From an uncultured virus (IMG/VR IMGVR_UViG_3300035422_000248) (Duplodnaviria > Heunggongvirae > Uroviricota > Caudoviricetes): 64,000 nucleotides of DNA. The notes beneath the pieces are model-generated. The model was not told the DNA's origin. It did no database searches and saw nothing but the letters and a program-made list of their open reading frames with translations. How positions within the stretch are numbered: position 1 is the stretch's first letter; every line of letters starts with the position of its first letter. The DNA is taken from positions 1 to 64,000 of IMG/VR virus record IMGVR_UViG_3300035422_000248, one strand, 5' to 3'. This document shows, one piece after another, positions 13,057-44,265 of the stretch. Both the position numbers and the translations under genes were made by a program.

Positions 13057-13641
13057 ATGAAAAATCCCGAATTAAAAGACATCAAAGCTGCCTATGGGGT
13101 AGCCGATGAAAACGGAAAGAAGATGCTCCGCGCTCTCTATCCCGATGTGTTCACAACCGCAACCACCGACAACCGCCCCGTCACTGCGCGTATCAAGACC
13201 TTTGAGGACGCTTGCAATGCTCTCGGCAATCATCCCCTCGTAAACCACTACCGCTACATCGTTGAGGAAGCAGAGAAGAAAATGGACGAAACCGGCGCAG
13301 ACATCGTGGCGTTCCTCAAACTCCGTATCGTAGCGGCCGCCCTCAACGAGGGGTGGACTCCCGACTGGGGCAACAAGGATCAGCGCAAGTGGTATCCGTG
13401 GTTCTATATCCTCACCGAGCAGGAGTACAACGACCTTGAAGAGGAAGAGAAGTGCCGTGTGGTTGGTCGTGCGAGCGTCAGTGCGAGTGCGTATGGCGGT
13501 CTCGTTTATGCGAACGCGAACTACGTTTCTTCGTACTCGTACACGAACGGCGGCTCTCGGCTCGCCTTCAAATCTTCAGAACTGGCCGAATACTGCGCAA
13601 AGCAGTTCGGCGAATTGTGGGCCGCGTTCCTCATCGCTTGA
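13057..13641 (+). CDS. Second DGR target protein (194 aa) carrying VR2
   Basis: Contains CRVVGRA...GGSRLAF encoded by an adenine-mutated copy of TR. Confidence 0.9.
   Translation: MKNPELKDIKAAYGVADENGKKMLRALYPDVFTTATTDNRPVTARIKTFEDACNALGNHPLVNHYRYIVEEAEKKMDETGADIVAFLKLRIVAAALNEGWTPDWGNKDQRKWYPWFYILTEQEYNDLEEEEKCRVVGRASVSASAYGGLVYANANYVSSYSYTNGGSRLAFKSSELAEYCAKQFGELWAAFLIA
13453..13563 (+). repeat. DGR variable repeat VR2 (remote)
   Basis: 111-nt ungapped match to TR with 11 mismatches, all at TR adenines; followed by GCCTTCA like VR1. Confidence 0.95.
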
Positions 13642-13659
13642 AACATCCAAAACTATTAT

Positions 13660-13683
13660 GGCCGCCGGTCCCATCCGGCGGCC
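13660..13683 (+). other. GC hairpin downstream of the VR2 gene (DGR homing hairpin or terminator)
   Basis: GGCCGCCGG-TCCCAT-CCGGCGGCC, perfect 9-bp stem. Confidence 0.65.
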
Positions 13684-13711
13684 GATTTCCAAAACCTAAA
13701 AAGAAAGAATT

Positions 13712-14080
13712 ATGAGCAAACAACAATGTGAAATCTGCGGTCAGATGAAATCACAGCAAGAAATGTCAAAATCATACAAGCACCGATGTAAAGAGTGCGT
13801 GGCGCGTCTCACCCGGATTGAACGCCAAGCCGCAAAACAACGTGCAGAGAATATAAATCAGCAACTGGAGGGGACAGGCTATACTCCGGTCTCTCCCGAA
13901 GATAGACGCCGGGAGCGTATTCAAATCGCCACGGCCGCCATGCAGGGAATGATTACCGCTGATATGCATTACAACAGTCTAATGGATATGAAAGGCTTAG
14001 CCGTCACTTCATTGAAGTTCGCGGATGCTCTCCTTGCCGAGGTTGACAAAGAAGAGAAAGGAGGTAACGATGCTGATTGA
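13712..14080 (+). CDS. Zinc-finger hypothetical protein
   Basis: CEIC...CKEC; C-terminal RIQIATAAMQGM...FADALLAE phage motif. Confidence 0.7.
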   Translation: MSKQQCEICGQMKSQQEMSKSYKHRCKECVARLTRIERQAAKQRAENINQQLEGTGYTPVSPEDRRRERIQIATAAMQGMITADMHYNSLMDMKGLAVTSLKFADALLAEVDKEEKGGNDAD

Positions 14081-14375
14081 AATTCTCTCACACCTCGCGT
14101 CAGTAATCGTTACTGCCGTGGTAATCTTTCTCATCATCCTGCTCATCAACCGCCATGAGCGCAAGCGTCACGAGAACTACCACATCACTATCGAGTATAG
14201 AGGCTTTCGGTTCTCGTACAGCAAAATGGCAGAATGCCTTGAAGTCCTCAACGAACTCGGCGCAGAGGGTTGGGAAATCGCAACCTGCGCAGGCGAAGAT
14301 AGTTTTGCAGCTTACCTCATCCTCAAACGTGAAACCCTCCATACATCAAAGCCAAATGAAAATAGACAATCATGA
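14070..14375 (+). CDS. Membrane-anchored DUF4177-like protein
   Basis: TM helix plus LNELGAEGWEI motif. Confidence 0.6.
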   Translation: MLIEILSHLASVIVTAVVIFLIILLINRHERKRHENYHITIEYRGFRFSYSKMAECLEVLNELGAEGWEIATCAGEDSFAAYLILKRETLHTSKPNENRQS

Positions 14376-14602
14376 GTACTATCAGCAAGCAACTCGCCCT
14401 CATCCTCGTTAAAGAGGTCATCGCCGAGAAACGAAACAACAAAATCCATCCCGACTATGCCCTCGGCCTGGAAGTCGGAGCGAAGATAACCGAAGCGTTA
14501 AATGAACTGGTCGCTGACGGCTCGCTAATCGAACGTCAAGCCTCCGTCAATCGTCTCCCAGCCTATGCGATACCCGAAACGCCGAGCCAACCTGCTCTAT
14601 AA
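14372..14602 (+). CDS. Hypothetical protein, possible winged helix
   Basis: EALNELVADGSLI pattern; ATGA overlap. Confidence 0.55.
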   Translation: MSTISKQLALILVKEVIAEKRNNKIHPDYALGLEVGAKITEALNELVADGSLIERQASVNRLPAYAIPETPSQPAL

Positions 14603-14741
14603 GTTGCGCCGTAAGGGGATTGAAGCCGACACCAAACAGCGTGTTATCTTCATCCCCTACGGTGAGCAACCGCAACAATACATTCAAGCCGTCCGGCTCT
14701 GCCGTGAGTTTTATTTCAACATCCAATACATAATCACATGA
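14565..14741 (+). CDS. Hypothetical protein, 58 aa (not in the ORF track)
   Basis: Read by hand: MRYPKRRANLLYKLRRKG...NIQYIIT*; ATGA overlap with the radical SAM gene. Confidence 0.55.
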   Translation: MRYPKRRANLLYKLRRKGIEADTKQRVIFIPYGEQPQQYIQAVRLCREFYFNIQYIIT

Positions 14742-15640
14742 ACATAGGTCTCGTAGATGTAGATAGTCATAATTATCCTAACCTCGCATTGATGAAAATT
14801 AGTGCGTGGCACAAAGCGCATGGAGATATTGTTGAATGGGCAATGCCTATGTTCGGAGATTATGACCGCGTGTATCAGTCCAAGATATTCACCTTTACTC
14901 CCGATGAGCAGACTAACTGGAACTGCGAAGTTGTAAGAGGTGGCACCGGTTATGACATTCGCAGTCGCTTGCCGGAGGATATGGAGAGGTCAACGGCTAT
15001 GGATTATTCAATCTATCCGCAATATGAGTTTTCGATCCAATTCTTTTCGCGCGGTTGTATCCGGCATTGTCCGTTCTGCCTTGTGCATGACAAAGAGGGT
15101 TTAATCCACCCGGTAGAGCCGTTGCAACTCAATCCCAACGGCAAGCATATAGAGGTGCTTGACAATAATTTCTTTGCCAATCCCGAATGGAAATTTGCCG
15201 TGGACTTTCTGCTTGCCACAAAGCAGAAAGTAAATCTGCATGGTGTTGACATCCGCATTATGGACGAGGAGCAGGCTTTTTGGCTCAATAAATTGCCGTT
15301 GCATAAGAATGTGCATATCGCATGGGATTTGCCTCAGATAGACCTCACCGACAAGCTGCGCGAGGTTATCCGCTACATCAAGCCGTGGAAACTCATGTGC
15401 TATGTGCTTGTCGGCTTCAACTCCACGATTGAGCAGGATATGTACCGCATTGAGCGTCTGCGAGAACTCGGCATTAAGCCATACGTTATGCCTTACCGCG
15501 ACTTTGAGAATAAGACCCAGCCGAGCCAGTATGCAAAGGATTTGGCGCAATACGTCAACAAGCCGATGATTTTCAAGTCCTGCAAGTTTGAGGATTTCTC
15601 ACCGCGCAAAGGTTTCATTTGTAAAGCATATCTGACATGA
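14738..15640 (+). CDS. Radical SAM protein
   Basis: SRGCIRHCPFC CxxxCxxC motif; N-terminal YPNLALMKISAWHK; LDNNF. Confidence 0.88.
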   Translation: MNIGLVDVDSHNYPNLALMKISAWHKAHGDIVEWAMPMFGDYDRVYQSKIFTFTPDEQTNWNCEVVRGGTGYDIRSRLPEDMERSTAMDYSIYPQYEFSIQFFSRGCIRHCPFCLVHDKEGLIHPVEPLQLNPNGKHIEVLDNNFFANPEWKFAVDFLLATKQKVNLHGVDIRIMDEEQAFWLNKLPLHKNVHIAWDLPQIDLTDKLREVIRYIKPWKLMCYVLVGFNSTIEQDMYRIERLRELGIKPYVMPYRDFENKTQPSQYAKDLAQYVNKPMIFKSCKFEDFSPRKGFICKAYLT

Positions 15641-15888
15641 GCCACAAGGTAAAATATCCCATCTGCGGATTGTGTGAAAACTTCCGTTGGTTTAGCCTCG
15701 CACCTCAACATGGAGAATGTGTTGTTATCCCCGGCGAACGCTCACCGCAATCCGACCCCTGCGATAATTACCGCTGTGGCTACAACGAAGAGACAATCAA
15801 ATCATACATAGAACTCGGTCAGCGGTTAGCCGACATCGACCTAAACCCTAAAAACATCATTCCGATATATGACACTCCGCGTCTTTGA
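15637..15888 (+). CDS. Cys-rich hypothetical protein
   Basis: CGLC..C..C; overlaps both neighbours. Confidence 0.55.
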   Translation: MSHKVKYPICGLCENFRWFSLAPQHGECVVIPGERSPQSDPCDNYRCGYNEETIKSYIELGQRLADIDLNPKNIIPIYDTPRL

Positions 15889-17410
15889 AGCCTTTGCAGG
15901 CTACGGCTCTCAATCAATCGCCCTCGGACTACTCGCCGAGGCTTTCCCCGATTTCCGCTTTCAGACTGTCGGAATATCGGAAATTGACAAGTACGCAATC
16001 AAGGCATACGCCGCTCTCCACGGTTCAACAATACCCAACCACGGAGACATTACCAAGATTGACTGGTCGCAGACCGCCGATTTTGACCTCCTCACATACT
16101 CGTTCCCCTGCCAAGACATTTCTTCAGCAGGCAAACAGCGCGGTTTCTCCGAGGGGAGCGGCACACGCTCCTCCTGCCTATGGGCCTGCGCCAACGCCAT
16201 TGAAAAGAAGCGTCCTAAGTTCCTGCTCATGGAGAATGTAAAAGCACTCACTCAAACCAAATTCGCCGATGACTTCCGGCGTTGGCGCGAGTGGCTCATC
16301 AAGCAGGGATATAAAAACTACTACACAATCCTCAACGCAAAAGACTACGGCGTACCGCAGAACCGTGAGCGCGTCTTTATGGTCTCGTTCCTCGGCGATC
16401 ATTCCCCTTACTCTTTCCCCAAGCCGTTTGAACTCACACGGCGGCTGAAACACATCCTCGAAGATGAAGTTGAAGAGAAATACTGGTTGAAGCCGGAGCA
16501 GATACGCGCCATCATCAACCACAACGAGCGCAAGCAGTCCGAAGGGTGCGGTTTCAAAACCAACTTTCAGACCGGCGAGGGTATCAGCGGAGCAATCAAG
16601 ACAAAGGAGGGGAGCCGCGAATACGACACCTACGGCAAAGTTCCTACCTACGGCAATAGCCGTCTCAACTCCATGATAGCCGACGGCAAGATTGACCCCG
16701 AAGAAGTAATGTGGATTGACTGTTACAACCAGCGCGTTGACCCCGACATCGCCGGAACAATCCTTGCACGAGTGAATGCAACCGGGCATTATCTTGTGTC
16801 CGACCCTCGCGGTTGCGCCATGCGTGGCCGCCCCGATGCATCCGGGCGCAATGCACAGCAGATTGAACTCGGTTCTGACATCGCCAACGCCCTTACCTCC
16901 GTCCAAAAGGACAGCATGGTTGCCGAACCGCGCGTTATACAGGTTGGCAACCTCATCGAGGACTCCAACTATAAGAACCCACACCGCGGACGTGTCTATT
17001 CCATTGAGGGAATTGCGCCCTGCTTAAACTGCAACGAGGGGGGGCAGCGTGAAGTCAAGATATTACAGCGTGGCCACGGCTTCGCCAAAGGAGGTGTCTA
17101 TGACGTTGCGCCCGCGCTCACCTCCTCCAAATGGCAGGATAATAATTTTGCTATTATTGAGTATTGGATACGCAAACTCACTCCGCGCGAATGTTTCCGG
17201 CTCATGGACGTTCCCGAACACCTCATTGACCGCCTCCTCTCCGCAGGTATCTCCAACAGCCAACTCTATAAACTGGCAGGTAACTCAATCGTGGTGGCAG
17301 TTCTTTACCACATCTTCCGCAAGATGTTCACCGAGACTGCAAAGGAATATGGCGCACCGATCGCCCATAGCCATGAAGCACCCATAATTCAGCAACTCTC
17401 GCTTTTCTAA
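15869..17410 (+). CDS. DNA (cytosine-5)-methyltransferase (orphan)
   Basis: FAGYG, SFPCQD, MENV, QNRERVF, LTPRECFRL, AGNSI motifs. Confidence 0.95.
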   Translation: MTLRVFEAFAGYGSQSIALGLLAEAFPDFRFQTVGISEIDKYAIKAYAALHGSTIPNHGDITKIDWSQTADFDLLTYSFPCQDISSAGKQRGFSEGSGTRSSCLWACANAIEKKRPKFLLMENVKALTQTKFADDFRRWREWLIKQGYKNYYTILNAKDYGVPQNRERVFMVSFLGDHSPYSFPKPFELTRRLKHILEDEVEEKYWLKPEQIRAIINHNERKQSEGCGFKTNFQTGEGISGAIKTKEGSREYDTYGKVPTYGNSRLNSMIADGKIDPEEVMWIDCYNQRVDPDIAGTILARVNATGHYLVSDPRGCAMRGRPDASGRNAQQIELGSDIANALTSVQKDSMVAEPRVIQVGNLIEDSNYKNPHRGRVYSIEGIAPCLNCNEGGQREVKILQRGHGFAKGGVYDVAPALTSSKWQDNNFAIIEYWIRKLTPRECFRLMDVPEHLIDRLLSAGISNSQLYKLAGNSIVVAVLYHIFRKMFTETAKEYGAPIAHSHEAPIIQQLSLF

Positions 17411-17450
17411 ACTTAAAACCCCCAACATCGCTTTATCCCCTAACTTTGCC
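17407..17450 (+). promoter_or_regulatory. Late-promoter motif, copy 1
   Basis: CTAAACTTAAA-N22-CTAACTTTGCC. Confidence 0.65.
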
Positions 17451-17452
17451 AA

Positions 17453-17830
17453 ATGATTAAACTCTTGGAACATACTCGCCGACCCGACATAACCTTTTGG
17501 CGTGACGGTCGCATTTACATCACGGCACGAGTGGCGCGCCTGCTATCCCTGCGTCCGGGCGATGCGCTCAACATCGCCGTCAGAGACGGTGAGTATCTTC
17601 TGCACGCCATTCACCTTCATAACGCTATCGGCTACCACGAGGCACAATGCTTCCCTACGAATAAAAGGAAAGGCAGAGGCAACAATCTCCGTGCAAACTC
17701 CGTGCGCTTGTGTCGCATTCTCCTTAATTCCTCTGGTATCACTGCCGACCGCGCTTCATACATGATTGGCGAAGCCTTTGTGCAGGACTCAGTGACGTAT
17801 GTTCCAATCATAACCCTGCATCCACTATGA
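17453..17830 (+). CDS. Hypothetical protein
   Basis: 125-aa ORF directly after the promoter motif. Confidence 0.7.
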   Translation: MIKLLEHTRRPDITFWRDGRIYITARVARLLSLRPGDALNIAVRDGEYLLHAIHLHNAIGYHEAQCFPTNKRKGRGNNLRANSVRLCRILLNSSGITADRASYMIGEAFVQDSVTYVPIITLHPL

Positions 17831-17869
17831 CTTGCTTTAGCATGGTGAGCACCTATAAAATTTAACAAT

Positions 17870-20728
17870 ATGGCGAACAACAAAGAGATTAAATACAATG
17901 GCTATTCAGCACAGCCGTCCGACTACGAATGTCAGGACGGAGACCTCGCTGTCGCAATCAATCTCATTCCCGAAGATGGAGCGTTGAAGCCGGTCCACCC
18001 TCCCAAGTTGGTAAAGGCAATGGGTGATAGTGGCAAGGTCGCTTACGTTCATGAGACCTCTGCCTTTACTCACTATATCCTCTACGGTGATAACTCGCGC
18101 ATTTCCTATCAGAAGAAAGGCAGTTCGGCGGCTCCGCAATCTATTGACACCAGTTATGACTATCTCTTCGGGGTCACGCATTTCAACTCCGTTGGTAATA
18201 CCTTGTTGGCGTTCACCGCTACTGGCATCCATTACTACCTTTGGAAAGACAACGCCTACACCTATCTCGGAGACCATGTGCCGGAGATTGATGTGTCGTT
18301 CGGTCTTATCGGCCGTCCGCGCCTGTTCAGCCAGTGCGATGACAGCAAAAGCACATTCAATATCTCCTTTGACAGCATAGCCGAAGATGCAATCAACAAT
18401 GAGTTCACCGAGAACAACAAGACGCGCATAACCGAACAGGTCATGGCAAAGGTCAATAAGTTTGTGCGTGAGCAGACGGTTGAGAAAGGACGCTTTTGTT
18501 TCCCTTTCTTCGTGCGCTATGCCCTGCGCCTCTTTGACGGCTCACTGGTTAATCACTCCGCACCCATTCTGATGAACCCCTCCACGGCTGCCTGCCCCGT
18601 AGTCTTTTGGAAACATATCCGTGGAAAGAAGAGTTACACCGAGGCAGAACTTGATATTATGATGGTTGCTTCCACGCTTGACTACAAGATACTCTCCACC
18701 TCTGATGCCTACAAACTGGAGAAGTGGAGCGACATTGTTACAGGTATTGAGATATTCATCTCCAAACCGATTTACACTTTCGATCAGAACGGCAAATGCT
18801 CATCGTGGAAAGACACCGACAACTTCTCTACAAAATTCATCGGCAGGCTCTACGCTACCAACAAGACCACAACAAGCACCTCCATTGCCGAAGATAAAGT
18901 AATCGGCGCGTTCACAAGCAAAGAGTTCCTTGACATTTATGCCGAGTGGGAGTATTCACGTATCTACGCAATATTCTTCTCAACTGATAGAACCTACCCC
19001 GGCGAGTCTCTACACCTCCCCGAATTTACCGATGAGAAAGTCACCGAGACTATCCGCAACACCTCCACGTTCTATAAGCTGCGCACCATTGAGACAGCCG
19101 AGGCTATTGCCAATCGCGGTCAGCGCAAGGAACTGGTTATTGAAGATGAGTATTTGCAGTCATTAGTCACACGCGAAGTTATGACCGATGACTATCTCAC
19201 TCACGATATTCTTGCCGCCGAGAGTTCCTACGCCTACAACAATAGGCTCAACCTCTCCGGCGTCTCTCGCAAGCCGTTCCGAGGCTTCTTGGGGCAATCA
19301 ATGTTCGCGTGGTTGACCCACAATTATAGTTGGCAGTTAAGTGGCACAACACTCACAATCTCTCCCAATCCGTTCAGCGGTTGGGAGATGTCGGTCACTG
19401 TCTATCTCAAGGAGAATGGCAAGGACTATGCAGTCAATGCAAGCGATTACTACGCAGGCAATATGTGCCTCTTCCTTTCCTTTGACATGACAGACAGCAA
19501 TGGCAAATCTTTCAAGACTAAACGCTCATGGGGTTGCTACGTTTTCTATCCCAATGTCAATGCCCACAAGATGCTCATCAGCAATTCTACATTCGGCTCG
19601 TATCTGATAACGCTGAAACCGCATGAGTTCCTCAACGGTGCCTACGCCGTACTGGATTATGAAATGGTGCGCGAGATAAACTACACCAACGCTGACCTCC
19701 CTACAATAGGCTACAATCCCTCTACGGTCGTTGAAGATACCTATATCCGGCAGGACAATAAGATTTACACCTCCGAAGTCAATAACCCTTTCTTCTTCCC
19801 TCTGCTCGGTGTCAACACTATCGGGACCGGCAAGATGTTGGGTATCTGCTCGGCGGCAAAGGCTCTTTCGCAGGGTCAGTTCGGTCAGTTCCCTCTTTAC
19901 GCCTTTACCACTGAAGGAGTGTGGGCGTTGGAGGTCTCCGCTACCGGTACATATTCAGCGCGTCAGCCTATCACACGCGATGTCTGCATCAACGCCGAGG
20001 GCATTACTCAACTCGATAGTGCCGTCCTGTTCCCGACCGAACGGGGCATTATGCTCATATCGGGTTCGCAGACACAATGTATCTCCGACACGATCAACTC
20101 CGAATATCCATTTGACGCGCTCTCATTGCCCGGCTTCTCAAAGCTGCACGATATGTTGGGGCATGACCCCACTAACGACAAATGCCTGCCGACACTCCCG
20201 TTTACGGAGTTCTTGAAGCAGTGCCGTATGATTTACGACTACGTCCATCAGCGCGTGATTGTATTCGCCCCCGGCATTACCTATGCCTACGTCTATTCTT
20301 TCAAATCCCAAATGTGGGGCATGACGTTCTCTGACATTGCCTCTCATCTCAACTCCTACCCGGAGGCTCTTGCCGTTGATAATGACAACAACATTGTCAA
20401 CTTCTCGGAGTCTGACGTGGCGCAGGTGAAATGTTTGTCGGTGACGCGCCCTCTCAAACTCGATGCCGTCAATATCCATAAGACTATTGAGAGTATCATT
20501 CAGCGTGGCAATTTCGCCAAAGGACACGTGCAGTCCGTCCTCTTCGGCTCGCGTGATCTCATCAACTGGCACATGATTTGGTCTTCAAAAGACCATTTCC
20601 TCCGCGGCTTCCGTGGCACGCCTTACAAATATTTCCGCGTGGCTCTCCTCTGCAATCTCGCGCCGGGTGAGAGTATCTTCGGAGCGTCCGTGCAGTTCAC
20701 GCCACGCCTAACCAACCAACCCCGATAA
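17870..20728 (+). CDS. Putative tail/head-stabilisation structural protein
   Basis: 952 aa, beta-rich; IYTSEVNNPF and ALSQGQFGQFPLYAFT motifs; convergent with the adaptor genes. Confidence 0.65.
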   Translation: MANNKEIKYNGYSAQPSDYECQDGDLAVAINLIPEDGALKPVHPPKLVKAMGDSGKVAYVHETSAFTHYILYGDNSRISYQKKGSSAAPQSIDTSYDYLFGVTHFNSVGNTLLAFTATGIHYYLWKDNAYTYLGDHVPEIDVSFGLIGRPRLFSQCDDSKSTFNISFDSIAEDAINNEFTENNKTRITEQVMAKVNKFVREQTVEKGRFCFPFFVRYALRLFDGSLVNHSAPILMNPSTAACPVVFWKHIRGKKSYTEAELDIMMVASTLDYKILSTSDAYKLEKWSDIVTGIEIFISKPIYTFDQNGKCSSWKDTDNFSTKFIGRLYATNKTTTSTSIAEDKVIGAFTSKEFLDIYAEWEYSRIYAIFFSTDRTYPGESLHLPEFTDEKVTETIRNTSTFYKLRTIETAEAIANRGQRKELVIEDEYLQSLVTREVMTDDYLTHDILAAESSYAYNNRLNLSGVSRKPFRGFLGQSMFAWLTHNYSWQLSGTTLTISPNPFSGWEMSVTVYLKENGKDYAVNASDYYAGNMCLFLSFDMTDSNGKSFKTKRSWGCYVFYPNVNAHKMLISNSTFGSYLITLKPHEFLNGAYAVLDYEMVREINYTNADLPTIGYNPSTVVEDTYIRQDNKIYTSEVNNPFFFPLLGVNTIGTGKMLGICSAAKALSQGQFGQFPLYAFTTEGVWALEVSATGTYSARQPITRDVCINAEGITQLDSAVLFPTERGIMLISGSQTQCISDTINSEYPFDALSLPGFSKLHDMLGHDPTNDKCLPTLPFTEFLKQCRMIYDYVHQRVIVFAPGITYAYVYSFKSQMWGMTFSDIASHLNSYPEALAVDNDNNIVNFSESDVAQVKCLSVTRPLKLDAVNIHKTIESIIQRGNFAKGHVQSVLFGSRDLINWHMIWSSKDHFLRGFRGTPYKYFRVALLCNLAPGESIFGASVQFTPRLTNQPR

Positions 20729-20759
20729 CTCATGTACTTTAACATATCTATTGTAAGAG

Positions 20760-20794
20760 AAGAGCCGCCATGCGTGATGCACAGCGGCTCTTTT
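20760..20794. terminator. Intrinsic terminator between convergent genes
   Basis: AAGAGCCGC...GCGGCTCTTTT hairpin. Confidence 0.75.
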
Positions 20795-20813
20795 GATTAG
20801 GTTGGGGATTATT

Positions 20814-21338
20814 TCAGAACGGTGCCAGTCTCCTGCGCTTCCGCGACATTCGGGTGCTTACATTCACCCTTATCTCGCTCTCCGCTTCACTGGCTTTCGC
20901 TTTCCATATCTCCGCTTTCGCGGTGTTGGTGATGCTCATCCAGTCGGCTACCGCCTCGCACACAAGATACTCGTGTATCAGTTTCTCCAAGAGTTGGAGC
21001 GTAGTCTGTGAGTAGGTTGCAGGCACTTTCAACACAATCCCATACACACCCGGCTCTCGCAGTTTATCATCAAGCACCGAGCGGCGGATTTCTCGTTTCG
21101 TGTAAGGATAGAGAAATTCCTTACACTTCGCTACTCTCAAGTCAAGCACTCGCGTTACACGGTCCACATTCCCGGTTTCCCCCACGTCCTGCACCATGTG
21201 GCGGTTGTGGTTGCTTTCCGTGTCCATGACGCTACCCTCTATAAAGGCATAATTCTTTATGTCATATAGAAGTTCCTCGCGCTTGAACATTAGCACGGCA
21301 ACGCGAGTGCCGTTGTCATCATCTAAAAAGCAACTCAT
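20814..21338 (-). CDS. Putative head-tail adaptor/ring protein (paralog 3)
   Basis: ELLYDIKN...IHEYLVCEAVADW, basic C-terminus. Confidence 0.6.
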   Translation of the reverse strand: MSCFLDDDNGTRVAVLMFKREELLYDIKNYAFIEGSVMDTESNHNRHMVQDVGETGNVDRVTRVLDLRVAKCKEFLYPYTKREIRRSVLDDKLREPGVYGIVLKVPATYSQTTLQLLEKLIHEYLVCEAVADWMSITNTAKAEIWKAKASEAESEIRVNVSTRMSRKRRRLAPF

Positions 21339-21350
21339 TGTCGGTAGGGT

Positions 21351-21866
21351 TTAGGGATTGTCGGAGGGGCGCACGGGGCGACTGCGCTTGCTCACGGTCT
21401 GACGGATCAGTTCCATGTTCTTGTTAGCAAGAGCATAATACTGGTCTGCGTCAGCCTTGTTGGTGACGGTGTACCAGTCGGCGATAGCCGTATTGGCGAG
21501 ATAAGCGTGTACTGCTTCGCCTACGCCGGTGGTCGCAGCTTCGTTGAAGTTGCTCGGCATGGTGAGGTTCAGCACAAGGTCGGTGCTTCCGTCATAGTGG
21601 CTGTTGTCAGTGGTCGTGCCGTTTTCGTTCAGATACTCGCCCAGTTCGGTCTGCACCTCTGCAAACGCACGCTTCACCGAACGGAGTATCTTCTCGCGGT
21701 TTTCCTCATCTTCAGAGGCAAACATACTGGCAACCTCCTTGTGGTTGTCCTTGTTCTGAATGGTACGTCCGCGCAGGAACGTCTCATTCATGATGTCATA
21801 CAGCAACCACGAGATTTTGATGGTGGCGGTTACGTTTTTCTTCGCGCCTAATGTTGGTGTGGGCAT
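21351..21866 (-). CDS. Putative head-tail adaptor/ring protein (paralog 2)
   Basis: WLLYDIMN...VHAYLANTAIADWY, SKRSRPVRP C-terminus. Confidence 0.6.
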   Translation of the reverse strand: MPTPTLGAKKNVTATIKISWLLYDIMNETFLRGRTIQNKDNHKEVASMFASEDEENREKILRSVKRAFAEVQTELGEYLNENGTTTDNSHYDGSTDLVLNLTMPSNFNEAATTGVGEAVHAYLANTAIADWYTVTNKADADQYYALANKNMELIRQTVSKRSRPVRPSDNP

Positions 21867-21891
21867 GATAATTTAATATTTGTTGTTATAA

Positions 21892-22470
21892 TCAGTCGTT
21901 TGGTCGGGTTGGCTTCCGGCGGCTGTAAAGCAATCTCTCAGCGGTCTCAAGCATTTCCGAAGCCTGCATGAAGTAATCTTTGGCTTCTCCCTTATTGGCA
22001 AACTTAAACCATTGTCCGATGATCGAAGCGATGAAGAAACTGCGTAGAGTGGACTGTACGCTTGCCGTCAGTGTCTTGTCAAATGACTTGCTAACCTCAA
22101 TCACCGCTTCGTAGCCGGGCTTGCTCAACGCTCCGCTAATCGCAGGGGGAATGGCTACTGACTGCACCGCAATGTCGGGGTTGAACGGCTGAACTGGCTC
22201 TACCGGGGGCAGTATCGGGTCAATCAGTGCGGGCGTATCTGTGATTTGCTTTGTCTTGCCCGAAACGAGCATCTCCTTGAAATTCTCGTTGGTGGCAAGC
22301 ACTGACTCCTCCCAAAACCTGCCCAGTTCGGCGAGGTCATCATCAGCCGCGAGTATGCGGTCGCGTGCGTTCTCATCGCCGTCTATCAGTTTTGAACCTG
22401 TGTAGTCGGTAGCTTTTGCTACTTCCGCATAAACGTCGGCCTGGAATATTTGAATGGTGATTGTTTCCAT
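21892..22470 (-). CDS. Putative head-tail adaptor/ring protein (paralog 1)
   Basis: Start re-assigned to METITIQ; LRSFFIASIIGQWF, SRRKPTRP C-terminus. Confidence 0.6.
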   Translation of the reverse strand: METITIQIFQADVYAEVAKATDYTGSKLIDGDENARDRILAADDDLAELGRFWEESVLATNENFKEMLVSGKTKQITDTPALIDPILPPVEPVQPFNPDIAVQSVAIPPAISGALSKPGYEAVIEVSKSFDKTLTASVQSTLRSFFIASIIGQWFKFANKGEAKDYFMQASEMLETAERLLYSRRKPTRPND

Positions 22471-23066
22471 CAGAAAGATATGATTGAATACGTTATGCTG
22501 ACCCCGAAATATGGCTGAAAGCCTTGTGGAGTATAGCCGTAGCCTATTGTCGGGCCAATGTGCCACCGCTTGGGAGGTTTCCATTCGCGCTTCGTGATGA
22601 GCGTTGTCGGGATAAACACTCTCACGCTGTCGAGCCGTGGGTCTATCGGGCCGCTCACCCATGCCTCGTATGTGCTGTCGGCATAGTGGCGTTGGATAAT
22701 GGGCAGCTCCACGATTGCACTGTCATTGCTACATCGTGGTTCGCCTCCTGCGCCGGTGCCGTAATGGGTTGAGGTTATCAGAGTGTCAACACAAAGGCTG
22801 TCCGGCGCGCTCCATTGTCGCGGTTCTCCACCTGCCCCCACGCCGATAAAGTAATACTTCGGCAGGGTGTAAGTGCGCGTGCCTAACGCAATTTCCGACT
22901 GCGGTGTCGGCGCGATATAGGGAATGGTGTCATACACGGTTAACGTGTCGGTCACACACTCCGTAAAGTCGGGGATATTGCCGGGGGGTGACTGGCATTT
23001 GTGGAGCATCGCGCCTGCTATGAGGCCCGCTGTCACGACAAGCAGGAGTTTCAGATTTTCTTTCAT
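22470..23066 (-). CDS. Lysis-cassette membrane protein (spanin-like, DUF6808-like)
   Basis: N-terminal TM; YEAWVSG..PRLDS; C-terminal beta-hairpin PYFGVSITYSIISF; follows the endolysin. Confidence 0.65.
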   Translation of the reverse strand: MKENLKLLLVVTAGLIAGAMLHKCQSPPGNIPDFTECVTDTLTVYDTIPYIAPTPQSEIALGTRTYTLPKYYFIGVGAGGEPRQWSAPDSLCVDTLITSTHYGTGAGGEPRCSNDSAIVELPIIQRHYADSTYEAWVSGPIDPRLDSVRVFIPTTLITKREWKPPKRWHIGPTIGYGYTPQGFQPYFGVSITYSIISF

Positions 23067-23074
23067 GAGGATTA

Positions 23075-23764
23075 TTACTTGAAGTTCTTAAATTCGGTTC
23101 GTGCGTCAAAACTGGGGCAGGCTTTCGCCGCGAAGTCGCGGTGTCCGTAAACTTCGGGATTGCCGTATTTCCCTTTCAGTTCTCTCACAAGTTTGTTGAT
23201 AGAGGCTTTCTGCGCTTCGGTGCGCGTGTCCTTTCCCTGCTTGTTCCAGTCCTTGACCGAACGCGCCGGGCAACCGCCGATATAGCAAATGCCTATGGAG
23301 TCGTAGTTGTGGTTACTGGTGTGGCAACCTCTCACATTCTCCGGGCGGCACCTCACTATCGTTCCGTCACGCTTGATGATGTAGTGATAGCCGATGTAGT
23401 GCTTCTCTTTCGTGTCGGGGTCGATATAGTATGAGAAGTTCCGCGCCTTGTGCGAGTGGTCTATGGTGTCAATGGAATAATCCTCACCCTCCGGGGTTGC
23501 GGAGCAATGCAGGATTATCTTCTTGATAGTGCGGCCGCCGGGCGTGACTTCATCTGCTGTCTCGTAGCCGAGTTTGCTCCACGTCTTTGCGCCTGCAATG
23601 CCGTCCACCGACAAGTCATTGTGTTTCTGAAAATCCTTGACAGCCGCTTCGGTCTTTTTCCCGAACACGCCGTCAACTGTCAGTCCGTAGGGGCAGGCTT
23701 TGTTCAGAGCCGTTTGCAGGGTTTTTACCTCTGCGCCCTTGCTTCCTAATTTCAGTGTTGTCAT
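23075..23764 (-). CDS. Endolysin: peptidoglycan-binding domain plus N-acetylmuramoyl-L-alanine amidase
   Basis: LKLGSKGAEVKTLQ/DGVFGKKT PG-binding domain; IILHCSAT, IGYHY, SIGICYIGG, GHRD..KACPSF. Confidence 0.92.
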   Translation of the reverse strand: MTTLKLGSKGAEVKTLQTALNKACPYGLTVDGVFGKKTEAAVKDFQKHNDLSVDGIAGAKTWSKLGYETADEVTPGGRTIKKIILHCSATPEGEDYSIDTIDHSHKARNFSYYIDPDTKEKHYIGYHYIIKRDGTIVRCRPENVRGCHTSNHNYDSIGICYIGGCPARSVKDWNKQGKDTRTEAQKASINKLVRELKGKYGNPEVYGHRDFAAKACPSFDARTEFKNFK

Positions 23765-23767
23765 ATC

Positions 23768-24220
23768 TTAGTCCTTTGCTGTTGAGGGGTTGTTGTCGGT
23801 GCAGATAAGGTCAAGTATCCGTTTGGCTTCCTTCTTATCCGCGGCCGCGATAATGTCATTGATGATTTTGGGCAGTTCGGTCATGTGGCTCTTCCTGCGG
23901 TTGGCGTGTTCAAACATACTCTTCGCTTCAACCACTATCAGACCGGCCCCGAAAAGCACAGCCACAAACGGCAGGATGTAGAACGAAAAGAAAATGCCGA
24001 GGCAGTCCACCAAAAAGCCAATCATTATGAACCTCCAATACTCGCTCATCTTCCCGATCGTCACGCGGAGTTTATGCGAGTGGACGCGCTGATTGGTTTT
24101 CTTCGCCGTGTGTACTCCGTCCCATAAGTCAAGCATAATGGCAGATATTACCAGTATGCACACGGCAAGGAAGATGCCGAGGAACAGGTAGAGTTTTTCA
24201 AGTGAAATGATTGTGTCCAT
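23768..24220 (-). CDS. Holin
   Basis: Three hydrophobic segments, directly upstream of the endolysin; start re-assigned to MDTII. Confidence 0.75.
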   Translation of the reverse strand: MDTIISLEKLYLFLGIFLAVCILVISAIMLDLWDGVHTAKKTNQRVHSHKLRVTIGKMSEYWRFIMIGFLVDCLGIFFSFYILPFVAVLFGAGLIVVEAKSMFEHANRRKSHMTELPKIINDIIAAADKKEAKRILDLICTDNNPSTAKD

Positions 24221-24241
24221 TATAAAAATATCTTTGGTTTG

Positions 24242-24290
24242 GCGCAAAGTTACCGATAGCCTGCGCCTCGCTCTCTTTAACTTTTGTGAC
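24242..24290 (-). promoter_or_regulatory. Late-promoter motif, copy 2 (lysis/adaptor operon)
   Basis: Minus strand GTCACAAAAGTTAAA-N22-GTAACTTTGCGC. Confidence 0.7.
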
Positions 24291-24299
24291 ACTTACCCA

Positions 24300-24328
24300 C
24301 ACGGCGCAAGATTGCTCCTGCGCCGTGC
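24300..24328 (-). terminator. Hairpin after the tail/DGR operon
   Basis: CACGGCGCA...TGCGCCGTG stem. Confidence 0.5.
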
Positions 24329-24334
24329 CTGCTG

Positions 24335-24808
24335 TCAGCAAAGAATGTAGATGAGTGAGGCGTAAAGGTTATAGAGCAGTCCTGCCTCAACCCAAAAGAG
24401 AATGTGCCTGCGGTCAAGTATGGCGATTACTGCCCCTGCGATGGCTATGTATGGCACACCTGTTGTCAGTATCAGCCATAGCGTAGCCGACAATCCGAGC
24501 GTCAGCGCGGCTCCGTAGTGTACCTGCTTTGTCAGTTCCTCTTTGAACGCAGGGGCGGCCGCTACAAACAATATGGATGCCACGATGAGGAACGCCACGA
24601 ACTGGTATCTCTCGGGCGTGATGTTGAGCAGTGGCACGAGTGCCAGCACTCCCGACACTCCCGTGCAGACCGGGAAGAGCCATTTGCACTCTGTTCGGTA
24701 ATAGGTGTCGCTGATTGAGCAAGGCACACCTTGATTGAGTATGTAGGCTGTCAGATACAGCGACATGATGATGCACGACAGCGTGACTGCGATTAGTTCT
24801 AAAATCAT
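24335..24808 (-). CDS. Multi-pass membrane protein
   Basis: About 5 hydrophobic helices; PCSISDTYY motif. Confidence 0.75.
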   Translation of the reverse strand: MILELIAVTLSCIIMSLYLTAYILNQGVPCSISDTYYRTECKWLFPVCTGVSGVLALVPLLNITPERYQFVAFLIVASILFVAAAPAFKEELTKQVHYGAALTLGLSATLWLILTTGVPYIAIAGAVIAILDRRHILFWVEAGLLYNLYASLIYILC

Positions 24809-24815
24809 GATGATG

Positions 24816-25310
24816 TTACTTTTCGGTTGTGTAGATTTCTAAATTGAGTTCGTTGATTTCGTTCCACTCGGCTTTTGCCACGGCGGTCTTGTGAGCTGCG
24901 ATGAGCGCGGCCACTTCTCCGATCTCCTCTGCGGTGCTGAACGTGTAGATTGACGGAGTGCCGTCCTCCGATGAGCCGAGGTTTATCTCGATAGGCAACT
25001 GCACGAAACCTGCCTGCATCCCGACAATGATGCCTGTTAGGTCGCTTTTCCGCTCCTCAGTGTATTCCACTGGCAAGCCGTTCCACTGCAAGCCGTAGCG
25101 CAGGCGGTGTGCGCTCTCCTCCTTGATTGCGCCCACAATCTCCTCCTTGATTTCTTCAAGGCTCGGACGCCGGGCGTATCGCTTGCGCCAGTTCCACCCT
25201 GTGGAGTCTGCCTCGTTGTCTTTGCCGAAGCCATAGATTAACTCCCACTTGTTGCGGCCTATCTTATACAGCCCGTCCTGCCGCACAGGGCTTCCATATA
25301 CCTTTTCCAT
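24816..25310 (-). CDS. Hypothetical protein, possibly a DUF4376-like tail-fibre assembly factor
   Basis: RPSLEEIKEEI...GLQWNGLPV; downstream of the RT in the tail operon. Confidence 0.55.
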   Translation of the reverse strand: MEKVYGSPVRQDGLYKIGRNKWELIYGFGKDNEADSTGWNWRKRYARRPSLEEIKEEIVGAIKEESAHRLRYGLQWNGLPVEYTEERKSDLTGIIVGMQAGFVQLPIEINLGSSEDGTPSIYTFSTAEEIGEVAALIAAHKTAVAKAEWNEINELNLEIYTTEK

Positions 25311-26969
25311 TACACGTAGGGATTGATGTTGAGATTTAGGGTTCTGAAGATGTAAGCGACCTCTTCATCCGAGGGAGGGGTCACGTTGATTGTTGATGCG
25401 TCAACAAAGTTGGTTTTCGGGTACTGCCCGGAGTAGTCCACCGTGATGCCGACAAAGAACGGCAAACCTCTCTGAGCGTCTATCTCTTCAAGGATTTGCC
25501 ACAACTCTTGGTCTCCGGTCCACATCTTGTAGAGTTCGCCGTTGTGGATGAGTTGGATTTAGATACTTGCTCTTCGGCTTCGGCACTAACGACAAGTCCA
25601 CGCCCTGCGCCGATGCGGCCTCACAACGGCGTTGATACTCTTCTCTCTCTCGCTTGGGTATCATTTCACGTTCAAAGTCATACACGATGATACCCTTGTG
25701 GTCTAACTCTCTTCCGCTGATGCGTTTGCCCTTGAAGTTCTTTTTGCCGTCAAAGGAGAGTTTCTTGACTTTGAAGTTTCCGAACTGTTTCATTTTTCTC
25801 TTGTGCTTTAGTTTCTTGTATTCTTGGGGTGTGAGTAACGTCTTTAACAAGTGCCTGCAATCGGCGTGAGCGGCCATGCCGAAGAATGAACCGATGAGCG
25901 ACTGCCTGCGTTTGCGTGATTTTACGCGACTGAGACGGCGTGCGAATTTCTGCTTCGTGCGTTTCCTTATCCGCGAGTACACAACTCTCTCGCCCTTGCT
26001 GTCATCAACAAAGGTGTTATAGCCGAGATAGTCTATTCCCTCGGTCAGCGGTCTCACCGCCTCGCTCGGCTTTATCTCCAATCCCAGTTCAGCGAGTAGT
26101 GTTGTCAGATAGTCGCGCAGCTTCCACAATCCTTTCTTGTCCGTACCGAGTATGACAATGTCATCGCAGTATCGGTAGTAGTGATAACGTACTTCTTTGC
26201 CATTGGCGATTATTGTCACCTCGCCTTTTACAACGACTTGGCTTTCGGTCGATACATCGCGCGGTGTCTCAACCAAATGGTATTCCACAACCTCGCACAT
26301 CTTATGGTCTATGACATTCAGATGCAGGTTAGCGAGGCATTGTGATGAGCGCAATCCTTTTGAGAGTCCGCGCTTCATTAGAGTGATGAAGTTGTCAAGC
26401 ATTTTCAGAGCAAGAGGGTCGCTGATGTACTCTCTGATTTGCTTCTTCATAATATCTTGACTGATGTGGTCGTAGTAGCCGCGGATGTCACACTGATAGA
26501 AATACAGCGTCTCAGCCGATGCCAACAAGTCCTCTTCAAGAATGTCATGCAACCAGTGCATACCACGCCCTTTGATGCTCGCGGCCGTGTTCGTGATGAG
26601 TGTGGGATACAACCTGCGCTCCACCGGTACCATTACAGCGTGGCAACCGACACGATGATACACCAGCGGACACTGAACAATCCTTTTCTTCGGACCGTCC
26701 TCCACCTCCATTTCTCTGATGTCTTTCGGGGTTATCACAAAATCCCCCGTTTTTAATTGCTTCTGCAACGCCTTGCAGTAGCAAGCCTTTTTAGGCCTCA
26801 TGTTTTCCCTTTGTTCCGCGCACTCAAGATGGTCTATGACGTAATCAAAACTTTCGGATATGTTGACCGCGTCCGCAATCTCATCTATGATATTACGGAT
26901 CGGGAATGTAGTCTTGGCAAGTATGCTGTCCGCTACATCGGTCATATATGGAATGTCATTCTCTTTCAT
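25310..26969 (-). CDS. DGR reverse transcriptase with a C-terminal extension; +1 frameshift near 25558-25560
   Basis: CDIRGYYDHI, KGLRSSQCLAN (DGR GxxxSQ), YRYCDD, GIDYLGY; start re-assigned to MKENDIPY (ORF track 25488..27053); removing one A joins it to ORF 25310..25525. Confidence 0.92.
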
Positions 26970-27126
26970 AAAGCCTTCAGGCGCTTCAGTGATGTTCCGG
27001 CTTTCTTCCTTGCGGAGAGGGTTGCCGAGGCTCGCGTTCCTCGCAGATTGCATTACCCAACTCGTGGGCGGTGCAGGGTCATACGATTATGATGTCCAAA
27101 GGGGCAAATATTTTGCGTCTTAATGT

Positions 27127-27237
27127 GAGCCGAGAGCCGTTGTTCGTGTTCGAGTTCGAAGAAACGTTGTTCGCGTTCGCATAAACGAGACCGCCATTCG
27201 CATTCGCATTGTTGTTCGCACGACCAACCACACGGCA
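27127..27237 (-). ncRNA. DGR template repeat (TR)
   Basis: 111 nt with 12 AAC/AAT codons and 26 adenines, between target and RT; 3' flank ACATTAA (IMH*) versus GCCTTCA in both VRs. Confidence 0.95.
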
Positions 27238-27319
27238 CCGGGGAACACTCTACCTTTTTCGCCACCGCTTACGGGTGAACGTGTTTCGTTAAACTTCCGT
27301 TAATTATCTCTTGGGTTGA

Positions 27320-27345
27320 CCCCGACCGCCTGCAAGCGGTCGGGG
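27320..27345 (-). other. Hairpin/cruciform downstream of VR1
   Basis: CCCCGACCGC-CTGCAA-GCGGTCGGGG perfect 10-bp stem just after the target stop codon. Confidence 0.75.
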
Positions 27346-27353
27346 AATGATAG

Positions 27354-30300
27354 TTATGCTGCCTCCGCTTCCTCATCATCAAAGACGATAGTTCCACTGA
27401 AGGCGAGCCGAGAGCCGCCGTTCGTGCCCGAGAACGAAGAAACGTGGCTCGCGCTCGCATAAACGAGACCGCCATACGCATACGCATTGCTGTGCGCACG
27501 ACCAACCACACGGCACCTGTCATGCGTGTAATAGAATATATCTGAATAGTTCTTATTCCACGCTGAATTGTCGTTGGTGAGTTTGGATGCTATGGTGTCC
27601 ATGAAGCGACCGAAGCGCACACGTCCGATGCAATACCCGGTAGCGTTGATGCCCTGCACCTCGCGCTCCGTATCATCATGCACATTGTAGATGTGCCAAC
27701 GCATATCAATCGGATACGTAGAGTCCGTTGTCGGGCATTTCTTCGCTTTCCAGTCTTTGAACGAAAGGACATTTACCGCAACGTGGGCCATCCATTCGTA
27801 GTTGCAGGCTACGAAGTTCTGAATACCGAACATGAGGTTGCCGTTTGAGGTGCCGCCATTTTCAAGTGTGCGGTTACCCCACTCGTTGATATTCTTGCCT
27901 ACGAGGGTCTGACTGCCTGTTGTGTAGCCGGATGAGCAACCGCGTCCGCACAATGCTTGGATGTCGCGTGTGCCTGTCAACTCCATAATGATGTTTGCGA
28001 GGTCTTTTGACTGCTCGTAACTGATAGCATGGAAGCCGTCACCGCGCATTTCGCAGAGGTTGATGAAGTCCTGACGTGTGCGGTGCAGGTTAGGCGGTGC
28101 GGAGAGGTTTGTCACCCTCCCTTGTGCATCATACGTCCACGCGGTGGAGGTGGAAGCTGTGCCGTCTCCTACCTGCGCTTTCGTGCCGGAGATCGAACGC
28201 GCACGTCCGAGTCCGTCAATGCCCACGGCATAGATGCCTACCAAATCCTCCTCATGTCGCGCCCAGTCGGGTTCTATCGCTTCAATCGCTGAACTATCCA
28301 CCGAGATAGCCTCTTGATTGTCGCAACCTGTCTGCGCCGTGAACACAAACTTCTTCGCCCCGGAGGGTACGTCAGTGAAGATGTAATCCTCGCCGGGCAT
28401 GAAGTCAAACTGCGAGGTGCTGTTAGCCATTTTGAATGTGTCAATGATTTTACCATCGCCGTCAAGGAACACACACCCTAACTCGTTGGAGTTGATACCG
28501 GGCCAACGCACCTGTTTCATACCCTCTACGTCTATCTCATACACGTTCATGTTGGCGTTGGTGGAGTATGCAGGAGTGTTCCCTATGGGATTGGACGCAA
28601 GCACTAATGCGGAGTTGGCTTGCACCAATGCTTCGTTCAGTTTGACACGGTTGATTTTCTGATAGGTTGCCAGTGGCATATCCTTGCAGATAGAGCGCAG
28701 GGCATATTTGGTTTGGTCTTTGAAGTCATTGATACCTTTATACCAGTGGCCTGGGATATACTTGAAAAAGTCATAACCCATACCACTGCTGTCGGAAAGG
28801 CCAATGCTTGTGCCGTCAGCGAGGAAGTTGTAGTTGTCATCGCTCAGTTTCACGCAGTGCATCACACCCTCAACGTAGGTGCCGCGCACAGCCTTGCTCA
28901 TCTCCTCCAGTCGCTTGAAGTGTCCGCTTGCCACGAATGGTTTGTTAAACAGGTAGCCGGTCTTGTTGTCAAGGTTTGTGATGTTCTCACAATCATCCTC
29001 CGTGTCGGAATAGCATACCATTGAGAACTGCGAGTTGATGAGGTCAAGTTCGGGGAAGTAAGCTGCAAGGGTATTCATGCCTGCCTCTCCGTCCACGTCT
29101 CCGTCCTCAATGAGTTCTGACAATATCCAGCGGCCTGTGATGCCGGAACACTTGTTGCTCTCTTCGTAGGCGGCTCCGCTTGCATCGAGACCTATCGCCC
29201 CGGTGCTTCGCAACTGGCGCAGAACGCTCACACTCGCTGTCATATTGATGCCGGGAATGCGCACCTCTTGGATTGCTCCTGCTTCTGCAACATTCATTAC
29301 GAGAGTTTCCACGTCCACAAACTCACAACCCTCTACCCATAGACGGCTGATGTTACCTACACTTGCCAGTGTAAGACCTCCGGGATATGTAAGTTTCGGC
29401 AGGTTCACAAGTTCAAGTGATGTCATCGTGCCGGGCAGTATTAATGCCTCAATAGGTGCTGTCTGCGCAATCGTGCAGGTTGTCAGTGAGGTATTGTTGG
29501 CAATGATACTTTCAATGCGCGGACACCCTTTTGCGTCAACACTGGTGGCTGTGGTATAACTCACGTCAAGCACGCGCAGGAACGGCATATTGCCGAGTGT
29601 TACGTTACTTAACGGATTGAAGCCGTTGAGTGAGGTATTGGCGGTATGCTTCGCGCCTCCGAGTATGATTTCTTCAGCAAGTTCCAGTTTGCTCAAATCA
29701 TCAAAGTGGAACGCAAGCGACATTTCCGAAAGGTCAATCTTTCTCATGCGCCCCGGCTGATAGATATATAGCAATGCTCCTGCATCATGGGCGAACACGG
29801 TAAACGCATGACTTTCTCCGGCTTCAAGAAATACAATCTCCGACAACTGACCGCTTGCATCATTACCGATGCCATAATAGCCGGTCACGCCTGCGGTGAT
29901 ATATATCTTCGATGAATTGGAGATTGCCGACACACGACCGCTCAACGGATTGGTGAAGAAATCGCCGGTCTGATAATAGCCGTCGCGGATACTCCACCTC
30001 TGCTCGATAAATCGGGGCAGGGAGGTTAATCCCAGGCCGTGCAGTGCATAGAAGTACGGCAGGTTCGCAATCCCGGTGTTGTCAATGTATTTGCGCTCGC
30101 CGTCATACGAGGATATGACTTTGGGCCAGAAGAGCAGTTTGGTCTCAACAAAGAAATACATCGCTCCATCGGGTGAGAACGGTACCATTGTCTTGCCGTC
30201 AATCTCCGCTGTCTGATTTCTCATGCGGTTGATTACGCTCTTCAGTGAGATTGTCGTAACGCCGAGGTCGTTGCTGTTCCAGCACTCCTGCTGTTTGTCA

Positions 30301-44218: not shown

Positions 44219-44265
44219 GCGCAAAGTTACTGCTTTACACACTCCCCAATCGTTTAACTATTGTG
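44219..44265 (-). promoter_or_regulatory. Late-promoter motif, copy 4 (portal)
   Basis: Minus strand CACAATAGTTAAA-N22-GTAACTTTGCGC. Confidence 0.7.

Follow-up and report, generated by a model that had tools for sequence, protein, structure and literature searches.

A remote second target of a diversity-generating retroelement in a temperate Bacteroidales phage: a further example of a published family

The stretch of DNA analysed here (64,000 nucleotides, positions 1 to 64,000 of the uncultured virus record IMGVR_UViG_3300035422_000248; hereafter the window) belongs to a temperate Bacteroidales phage and carries a diversity-generating retroelement (DGR). Its single template repeat (TR) corresponds to two variable repeats (VR1 and VR2) in two proteins, a giant one encoded beside the TR and a protein of 194 amino acids (aa) encoded 13.6 kb away on the opposite strand. 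In DGRs, reverse transcription of the TR RNA introduces errors opposite adenines, and the resulting cDNA can home in trans wherever homology and an initiation of mutagenic homing (IMH) sequence are present; distance and strand of VR2 are therefore irrelevant. The features of the element are as follows (ORF, open reading frame; RT, reverse transcriptase; pI, isoelectric point).

27127-27237, minus strand: TR, 111 nt, with 26 adenines, mostly within AAC/AAT codons
27120-27126, minus strand: IMH* after the TR (ACATTAA)
27405-27515, minus strand: VR1, at the C-terminal end of the 2806-aa ORF; 13 mismatches to the TR, 13/13 at adenine
27398-27404, minus strand: IMH of VR1 (GCCTTCA)
13453-13563, plus strand: VR2, residues 133-169 of the 194-aa ORF; 11 mismatches to the TR, 11/11 at adenine
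13564-13570, plus strand: IMH of VR2 (GCCTTCA)
27354..35774, minus strand: target 1, the local DGR target, 2806 aa, phrog_14959; giant multi-domain late-module protein with C-terminal VR
13057..13641, plus strand: target 2, the remote DGR target, 194 aa, phrog_11581 (unknown function; E 8e-69)
25488..26969, minus strand: DGR RT with RVT_1 and YCDD; start uncertain (27053, 26969 or 26945)
25310..25525, minus strand: 71-aa orphan ORF, the out-of-frame end of the RT C-terminal extension
24816..25310, minus strand: 164-aa acidic ORF (pI 5.0) after the RT
27320-27345, minus strand: 11-bp GC hairpin downstream of the target-1 stop
13660-13683, plus strand: 9-bp GC hairpin downstream of the target-2 stop, a candidate cis hairpin or terminator

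One template and two targets

TR, VR1 and VR2 are 111 nt each, align without gaps, and are the only three copies of the repeat in the full 67,948-nt provirus record. Given 26 adenines in the 111 nt of the TR, the probability that all mismatches fall at adenine is 3.5e-10 for VR1 and 1.6e-8 for VR2, which rules out a chance repeat as the origin of the likeness. Our alignment reproduced what a first-pass annotation of the window had claimed for these repeats, namely their coordinates, 13 and 11 mismatches all at adenine, the lack of indels, and GCCTTCA at both VRs as against ACATTAA at the TR; the hairpins after both targets and the RT insertion described below go beyond that annotation. The locus thus shows TR/VR pairs that differ at TR adenines only, an IMH distinct from the IMH*, and an RT next to the TR (RVT_1, E 2e-8; phrog_1423, E 2e-65; catalytic YCDD), as expected of a DGR. 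No Avd family match was found in the ORFs on either side of TR and RT, so that the Avd-dependent organisation of the BPP-1 type was not recovered; the cassette is an Avd-less Bacteroidales prophage DGR in the order target 1 - TR - RT. The C-terminal extension of the RT, which matches no Pfam family and is found in relatives either fused to the RT, in frames of 587-642 aa, or on its own as a 160-aa protein (P0429-P0432), is a candidate Avd substitute. In other phages, an ORF of about 100 aa after the RT is its counterpart. The likeness of the 164-aa ORF to the CH1 accessory class (Wu et al.) goes no further than size, charge and position. The target-2 hairpin recurs in two related loci (L005, L006) and is missing from several more distant ones.

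The two targets are unrelated proteins, as the first-pass annotation had held: when profiles of target 1 (34 sequences) and target 2 (135 sequences) were compared with hhalign, only 42 columns aligned, and these cover the VR and the IMH only. The C-terminal CLec domain expected of target 1 gave no Pfam or PDB sequence match; motifs at its C-terminus, recognised by eye, we take to be FGE-like. Three members of the target-1 cluster (P0417, P0422, P0427; 2177, 2108 aa; 11, 3, 2 contigs) stop before the VR and are frameshifted or truncated alleles.

VR1 and VR2 carry four identical substitutions (TR positions 40, 82, 97 and 98), which yield two identical mutated codons, the number given in the first-pass annotation. 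Its further claim of independent retrohoming is supported, not proven, as no copying from VR1 to VR2 is evident. Alternatively, the variation of VR2 could serve no function of its own, VR2 being a bystander or a store of variants for recombination with VR1. VR1 and VR2 are indeed inverted repeats, two proteins (P0122, P0128; 186 aa) fuse a target-2 body to a target-1-type C-terminus within the VR, and over 33 TR/VR1/VR2 triples there are 135 identical VR1/VR2 substitutions where a class-wise shuffle, which does not control position bias, gives 113 +/- 7. However, sharing within a phage (mean 4.3, n=9) lies near that across phages with identical TRs (3.5, n=12), and position bias can therefore explain the excess; the window's four shared substitutions are typical. 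The chimeras are single short contigs that may be mis-assemblies through the repeat. The body of the 194-aa protein is conserved across its family, the family tracks a wide range of TRs, and in some phages no other target was found (records 24-82% complete). We consider a bystander or reservoir highly improbable.

Variation of the 194-residue family

Relatives of the 194-aa protein are numerous, with 4,765 at 90% clustering and 2,854 clusters at 50%. A first set comprised 51 viral records, 17 of them with an RT found by protein query, and 14 RT-less loci were left out of TR matching. The relative matched its own TR in 17/17 RT-bearing records (15 with all mismatches at adenine, one with 14/15, one degenerate with 20/26), 12 of these targets being remote (9-36 kb) and five being tandem pairs adjoining the TR. 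For a second set, the 35 longest of 67 new loci were chosen and 34 searched; 20 of the 24 with an RT matched their TR (16 all-adenine, 4 at at least 87%), each from 9-48 kb away. Five complete records rechecked with Pfam gave two with an RT and three in which none was detected. Altogether, 37 of 43 RT-bearing viral records match their own TR, 32 of them remotely (9-48 kb), in counts that include IMH/IMH* differences and in phages many of which are related.

The variation itself follows the template. In one cluster at 90% (48 members, 15 of them listed and 12 of these full-length), 13 of the 14 TR-adenine codons vary, as do 3 of 23 other VR codons and none of 157 positions outside the VR. Five other clusters vary at 11-14 of the 14 codons, and 213 proteins of the family hold 148 distinct alleles. 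The nearest named relative, with 89% identity in the target, is a prophage of the cultured Muribaculaceae bacterium Isolate-002, whose contig also holds an identical TR and an intact 591-aa RT frame; its VR2 allele differs at 11/11 adenines. The first-pass annotation was to fall if VR2 proved invariant across reads and relatives or varied away from TR adenines; at the level of the family it stands, variation being concentrated at TR-adenine codons. Proteins of the 194-aa family recur as DGR targets.

Several observations weigh against the overall account that we favour below. Two of the rechecked genomes (G014, G035) have an RT and no TR match within about 1.5 kb, no RT was detected in three complete genomes that carry the family (G026, G030, G046), 4 of the 24 RT-bearing records of the second set had no TR match, and in one cluster the VR carries a deletion and no longer varies. 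Diversification is therefore dispensable. Separately, a 154-kb phage with a family member (G061; L116/L200) has an RT interrupted by five TAG codons, which suggests stop-codon recoding; no TR match was found near this RT.

In environmental Bacteroidota (Chryseobacterium, Flavobacterium, Dysgonomonas, Chitinophagaceae and others), paralogues of 120-170 aa lie directly upstream of TR and RT, mostly in tandem. Several such cassettes (L040-L042, L044, L045, L172-L195) sit inside early operons with two to three tandem paralogues as their visible targets, and no further VR was found in five environmental viral records of the tandem type (24-82% complete). In a quick tree, gut remote-type and environmental tandem-type rows split on a branch with a support of only 66; its labels were assigned per locus, and we therefore claim no order of events.

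The lineage of the window itself looks frozen. Compared with Isolate-002, its RT gene carries a fixed 1-nt insertion near 25560 that shifts the end of the C-terminal extension into another frame. The RT cluster has 25 members; among the 15 listed, 13 finish with the shifted tail and the other two are fragments. The commonest shifted forms occur on 174, 75, 40 and 35 contigs. An assembly error behind the insertion is ruled out by these hundreds of contigs and by contigs from two runs (X9, X15) that show no gap there. The window's VR2 allele is present on 227 contigs and is matched exactly by 6 of 10 full-length members of its cluster, others being one with a non-adenine change and two chimeras with a target-1-type tail, and one VR1 allele is common to four proteins on 95 contigs. 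The runs that contain the phage are mostly labelled as mouse gut. Contigs of X9 and X15 cover the stretch, and their breaks at the repeats are what the repeats themselves would produce and do not signal polymorphism; the 15 runs that hold all words of the VR2 region were ranked by identity, so they give no measure of variation. An apparent opposite-strand joint in run X22 is not an inversion, as it comes from the repeat of a relative.

VR1 and VR2 are thus largely fixed and the RT extension is truncated, and present DGR activity in this prophage lineage is not supported. Two observations run counter to a complete freeze: a protein from a 684-nt contig in the window's own cluster (P0123) has eight adenine-codon changes, and a fifth VR1 protein (P0419) differs at one adenine codon. 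They mean that the freeze is not absolute, or is unlinked to the RT lesion. Raw reads of two runs (X21, X22; 86 and 366 reads, mostly partial) carried only relatives of the phage, so that they showed no polymorphism within a population. It is nevertheless rather probable that the lineage is frozen or damped, and truncation of the RT may be the cause.

The 194-residue protein and its setting

The 194-aa protein is acidic (pI 5.35), with a polar N-terminus and a maximum 19-residue hydropathy of 1.27, and hydropathy analysis gave no hydrophobic signal and no membrane segment. Together with the place of its gene in a replication and recombination operon, this supports the first-pass description of a small, probably cytoplasmic protein. 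An AlphaFold2 model (pLDDT 82.6, pTM 0.70; an earlier model from 87 close sequences was poor, with pLDDT 61) predicts a helical body, in which the VR region (residues 134-163) has a pLDDT under 50 and forms no sheet. With the better model, a Foldseek search of the PDB returned no match at E<=0.001, an absence that does not imply a new fold. A VIA-wide fold search reached a best Z of 4.5 with no CLec among the matches listed, and fold matches in BFVD were uncharacterised phage proteins only. Pfam gave no common family for 135 members and no DUF6273 match for the family, PDB sequence searches and an Atlas search gave nothing usable, and a search for a plasmid homologue found none. A reduced CLec fold is possible, the model speaking neither for it nor against it.

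In the window, a repressor and a rightward early operon face a leftward late region with portal, capsid, the 2806-aa target, TR, RT, holin and amidase. The early operon encodes RecT, an SNF2 helicase, HU, a replication initiator, a DnaC-like loader, YopX, the 194-aa protein, a radical SAM protein and a C5 methyltransferase, so that the gene of interest lies between the YopX/DnaC-like genes and the radical SAM/C5 methyltransferase pair. We scanned 17 loci chosen for diversity, applying PHROGs to 141 neighbouring ORFs of at least 110 aa. RecT, SbcC, helicase, replication-initiator and DnaC genes are neighbours in most of them, whereas a methyltransferase lies within about 4.5 kb in only 3/17 (L006, L027, L040). 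This count rules out a methyltransferase island as the defining context: the constant context of the family is a replication/recombination operon. It also weighs against our preferred function, as it makes a counter-defence context weak, and the anti-defence role suggested in the first-pass annotation is left with gene context in which methyltransferases are not a constant neighbour.

Such neighbours could point to a different partner, with the 194-aa protein binding a replication, recombination or regulatory protein of host or phage and thereby tuning host compatibility or the outcome of lysis-lysogeny or superinfection. RecT, an SbcC-like protein, helicase, replisome organiser and DnaC-like protein are its most constant neighbours, and cassettes with tandem paralogues sit inside this operon in two loci (L042, L040). 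Yet early operons gather unrelated accessory genes, and conserved host replication proteins would give little cause for continued hypermutation. We regard this alternative as rather unlikely.

Less likely again, and in our view improbable, is that the protein is a minor virion component, a second adhesin, or packaged and ejected. It has a VR loop in common with a presumed receptor-binding protein and a similar residue usage at variable sites, its homologue in phage Versailles is annotated 'tail protein', and other small second targets have been proposed to be receptor-binding. Its gene, however, has non-structural neighbours in the window and in most scanned loci, and no virion-type fold match was obtained. 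The protein resembles target 1 in the VR alone, and the Versailles annotation therefore probably stems from the VR segment.

Other parts of the phage may be noted briefly. A 5289-aa polyvalent protein (44258-60127, minus strand) with ddrB-ParB, inorganic pyrophosphatase-like and SNF2 helicase domains, presumably DarB-like, is encoded between the portal gene and a 1133-aa ORF. Three adjacent paralogous ORFs (phrog_19255/35482; 20814-22662, minus strand) end the late operon, where X15 contigs are divergent. The early operon closes with a 952-aa unknown protein (phrog_32516; 17870-20728, plus strand), and similar-sized ORFs stand there in several related loci. Beyond the window, a 497-aa ORF near the provirus end (L231:4456-5949, minus strand) has, by eye, the look of a tyrosine integrase. 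A promoter scan gave a signal at chance level, and no tRNA genes were found in the window.

Published counterparts and proposed function

Published work contains close counterparts. In Quimbyvirus, Benler 2021 (PMC8008677) described a second VR, which lies in a distant ORF on the opposite strand, close to methyltransferase and tRNA ligase genes, called this target a C-type lectin, showed adenine-specific alleles and proposed a role in phage-host conflict; the numbers of its DGR target ORFs vary (47/80 and 51/84). LoVEphage (MW660583, PMC8525569) and Quimbyvirus match the same B. dorei prophage (CP011531.1), the LoVEphage TR equals the published Quimbyvirus TR over 96 nt compared by eye, and the RtcB, Dam and C5 methyltransferase neighbours of the LoVEphage distal target agree with those of the Quimbyvirus VR gene. 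The 194-aa protein is 41% identical over residues 46-194 (E 6e-19) to LoVEphage QVQ57199.1 (Quimbyvirus ORF80/84), and six LoVEphage-like records give 41-43% over the same residues (E 1e-20 to 6e-19), a homology that extends beyond the VR. The LoVEphage homologue is itself a remote VR, with 19/19 mismatches at adenine, about 15 kb from its TR and on the opposite strand; family members are likewise remote VRs with adenine-only mismatches in phages Versailles (14/14) and BT-TP2 (13/13).

The window shares with Quimbyvirus and LoVEphage a remote, opposite-strand, adenine-only VR in a non-structural location near a methyltransferase. It differs in its P22-like portal, SU10-type capsid, Muribaculaceae-type host and TR, in its local target (2806 aa vs a 439-aa tail-collar fibre), and in that RtcB and DUF2400 neighbours were not detected. 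Dahlman 2025 (PMC12629997) reported four induced human-gut prophage species with a second, distal VR; these have the same layout as here and are human-gut isolates. The remote second target is consequently not new: family, arrangement and conflict hypothesis are in print (Benler 2021; the layout also in Dahlman 2025). The two-target arrangement is already published, and the window locus is a further example of a published family.

More distant systems resemble the cassette in part. Lineage-3/CLec3 f1 of Wu 2018 (PMC5758913) and 'domain group 3' (10.1101/2024.11.15.621889) share with it the lack of Avd, a target of >2000 aa, a C-terminal extension of the RT and a small acidic flanking ORF; they differ in that the CotH, Laminin_G_3 and LRR regions gave no Pfam match for target 1 of the window, which does exceed 2000 aa and one of whose homologues (P0397) has PF08757. 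According to Wu 2018, lineage 3 lacks avd, homing works in trans, and non-adjacent targets within 50 kb are common in phage DGRs. Bordetella phage BPP-1 (mtd-avd-TR-brt) is alike in TR/VR, adenine mutagenesis, IMH/IMH* and downstream hairpin, and unlike in its single tail-fibre target and Avd dependence, where the window has no detected avd and a second remote target. In Toutatisvirus, nd4 and nd12 (10.1101/2024.10.15.618418; PMC10743442), one TR also serves two dissimilar proteins, one of them 17 kb away in Toutatisvirus, but these are Firmicutes phages with DUF6273 lectin domains. Among papers open without subscription, we found none on function or virion proteomics of the 194-aa family. New here are the apparently frozen lineage, the operon context, a helical predicted scaffold that, with its VR region unresolved, has no lectin-fold match, and the environmental tandem paralogues.

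We are nearly certain that the window holds a DGR whose remote target is genuine and belongs to the published family. As we picture its working, one template would feed two genes, the giant late-module protein and the 194-aa early protein. The latter, soluble, outside the virion and produced alongside recombination and replication genes, would display on its conserved helical body a loop in which 14 codons vary (mostly Y, S, G, N). This loop may bind a rapidly evolving protein inside the cell, the best candidates being a component of host defence or a competing element. In the laboratory-mouse lineage, truncation of the RT would have largely switched the element off and left both VRs fixed. 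An intracellular binder that is not part of the virion is a likely description of the protein, and the assignment of its partner to defence or conflict stays tentative, a little short of an even call. The account as a whole, with two targets, an intracellular binder and a lineage largely off, is the one we favour with moderate confidence. More doubtful is the wider idea that Bacteroidota prophages maintain, in one large family of small helical proteins other than canonical C-type lectins, a DGR-randomised loop as an antibody-like library against host defence proteins within the infected cell.

To our knowledge, the phage DGRs studied experimentally diversify receptor-binding proteins. That many Bacteroidota phages encode a hypervariable family in their early operons suggests that targeted hypermutation has a second use, inside the cell, an idea already published. 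The cultured Muribaculaceae lysogen, with identical TR and intact RT, and the widespread lineage, with truncated RT extension and fixed alleles, form a tractable pair that could reveal the role of the extension and whether VR2 alleles matter. If the proposed function holds true, an intracellular library would be valuable enough to some phages for a dedicated cassette with tandem paralogues, while in others it would share the template of the tail protein.

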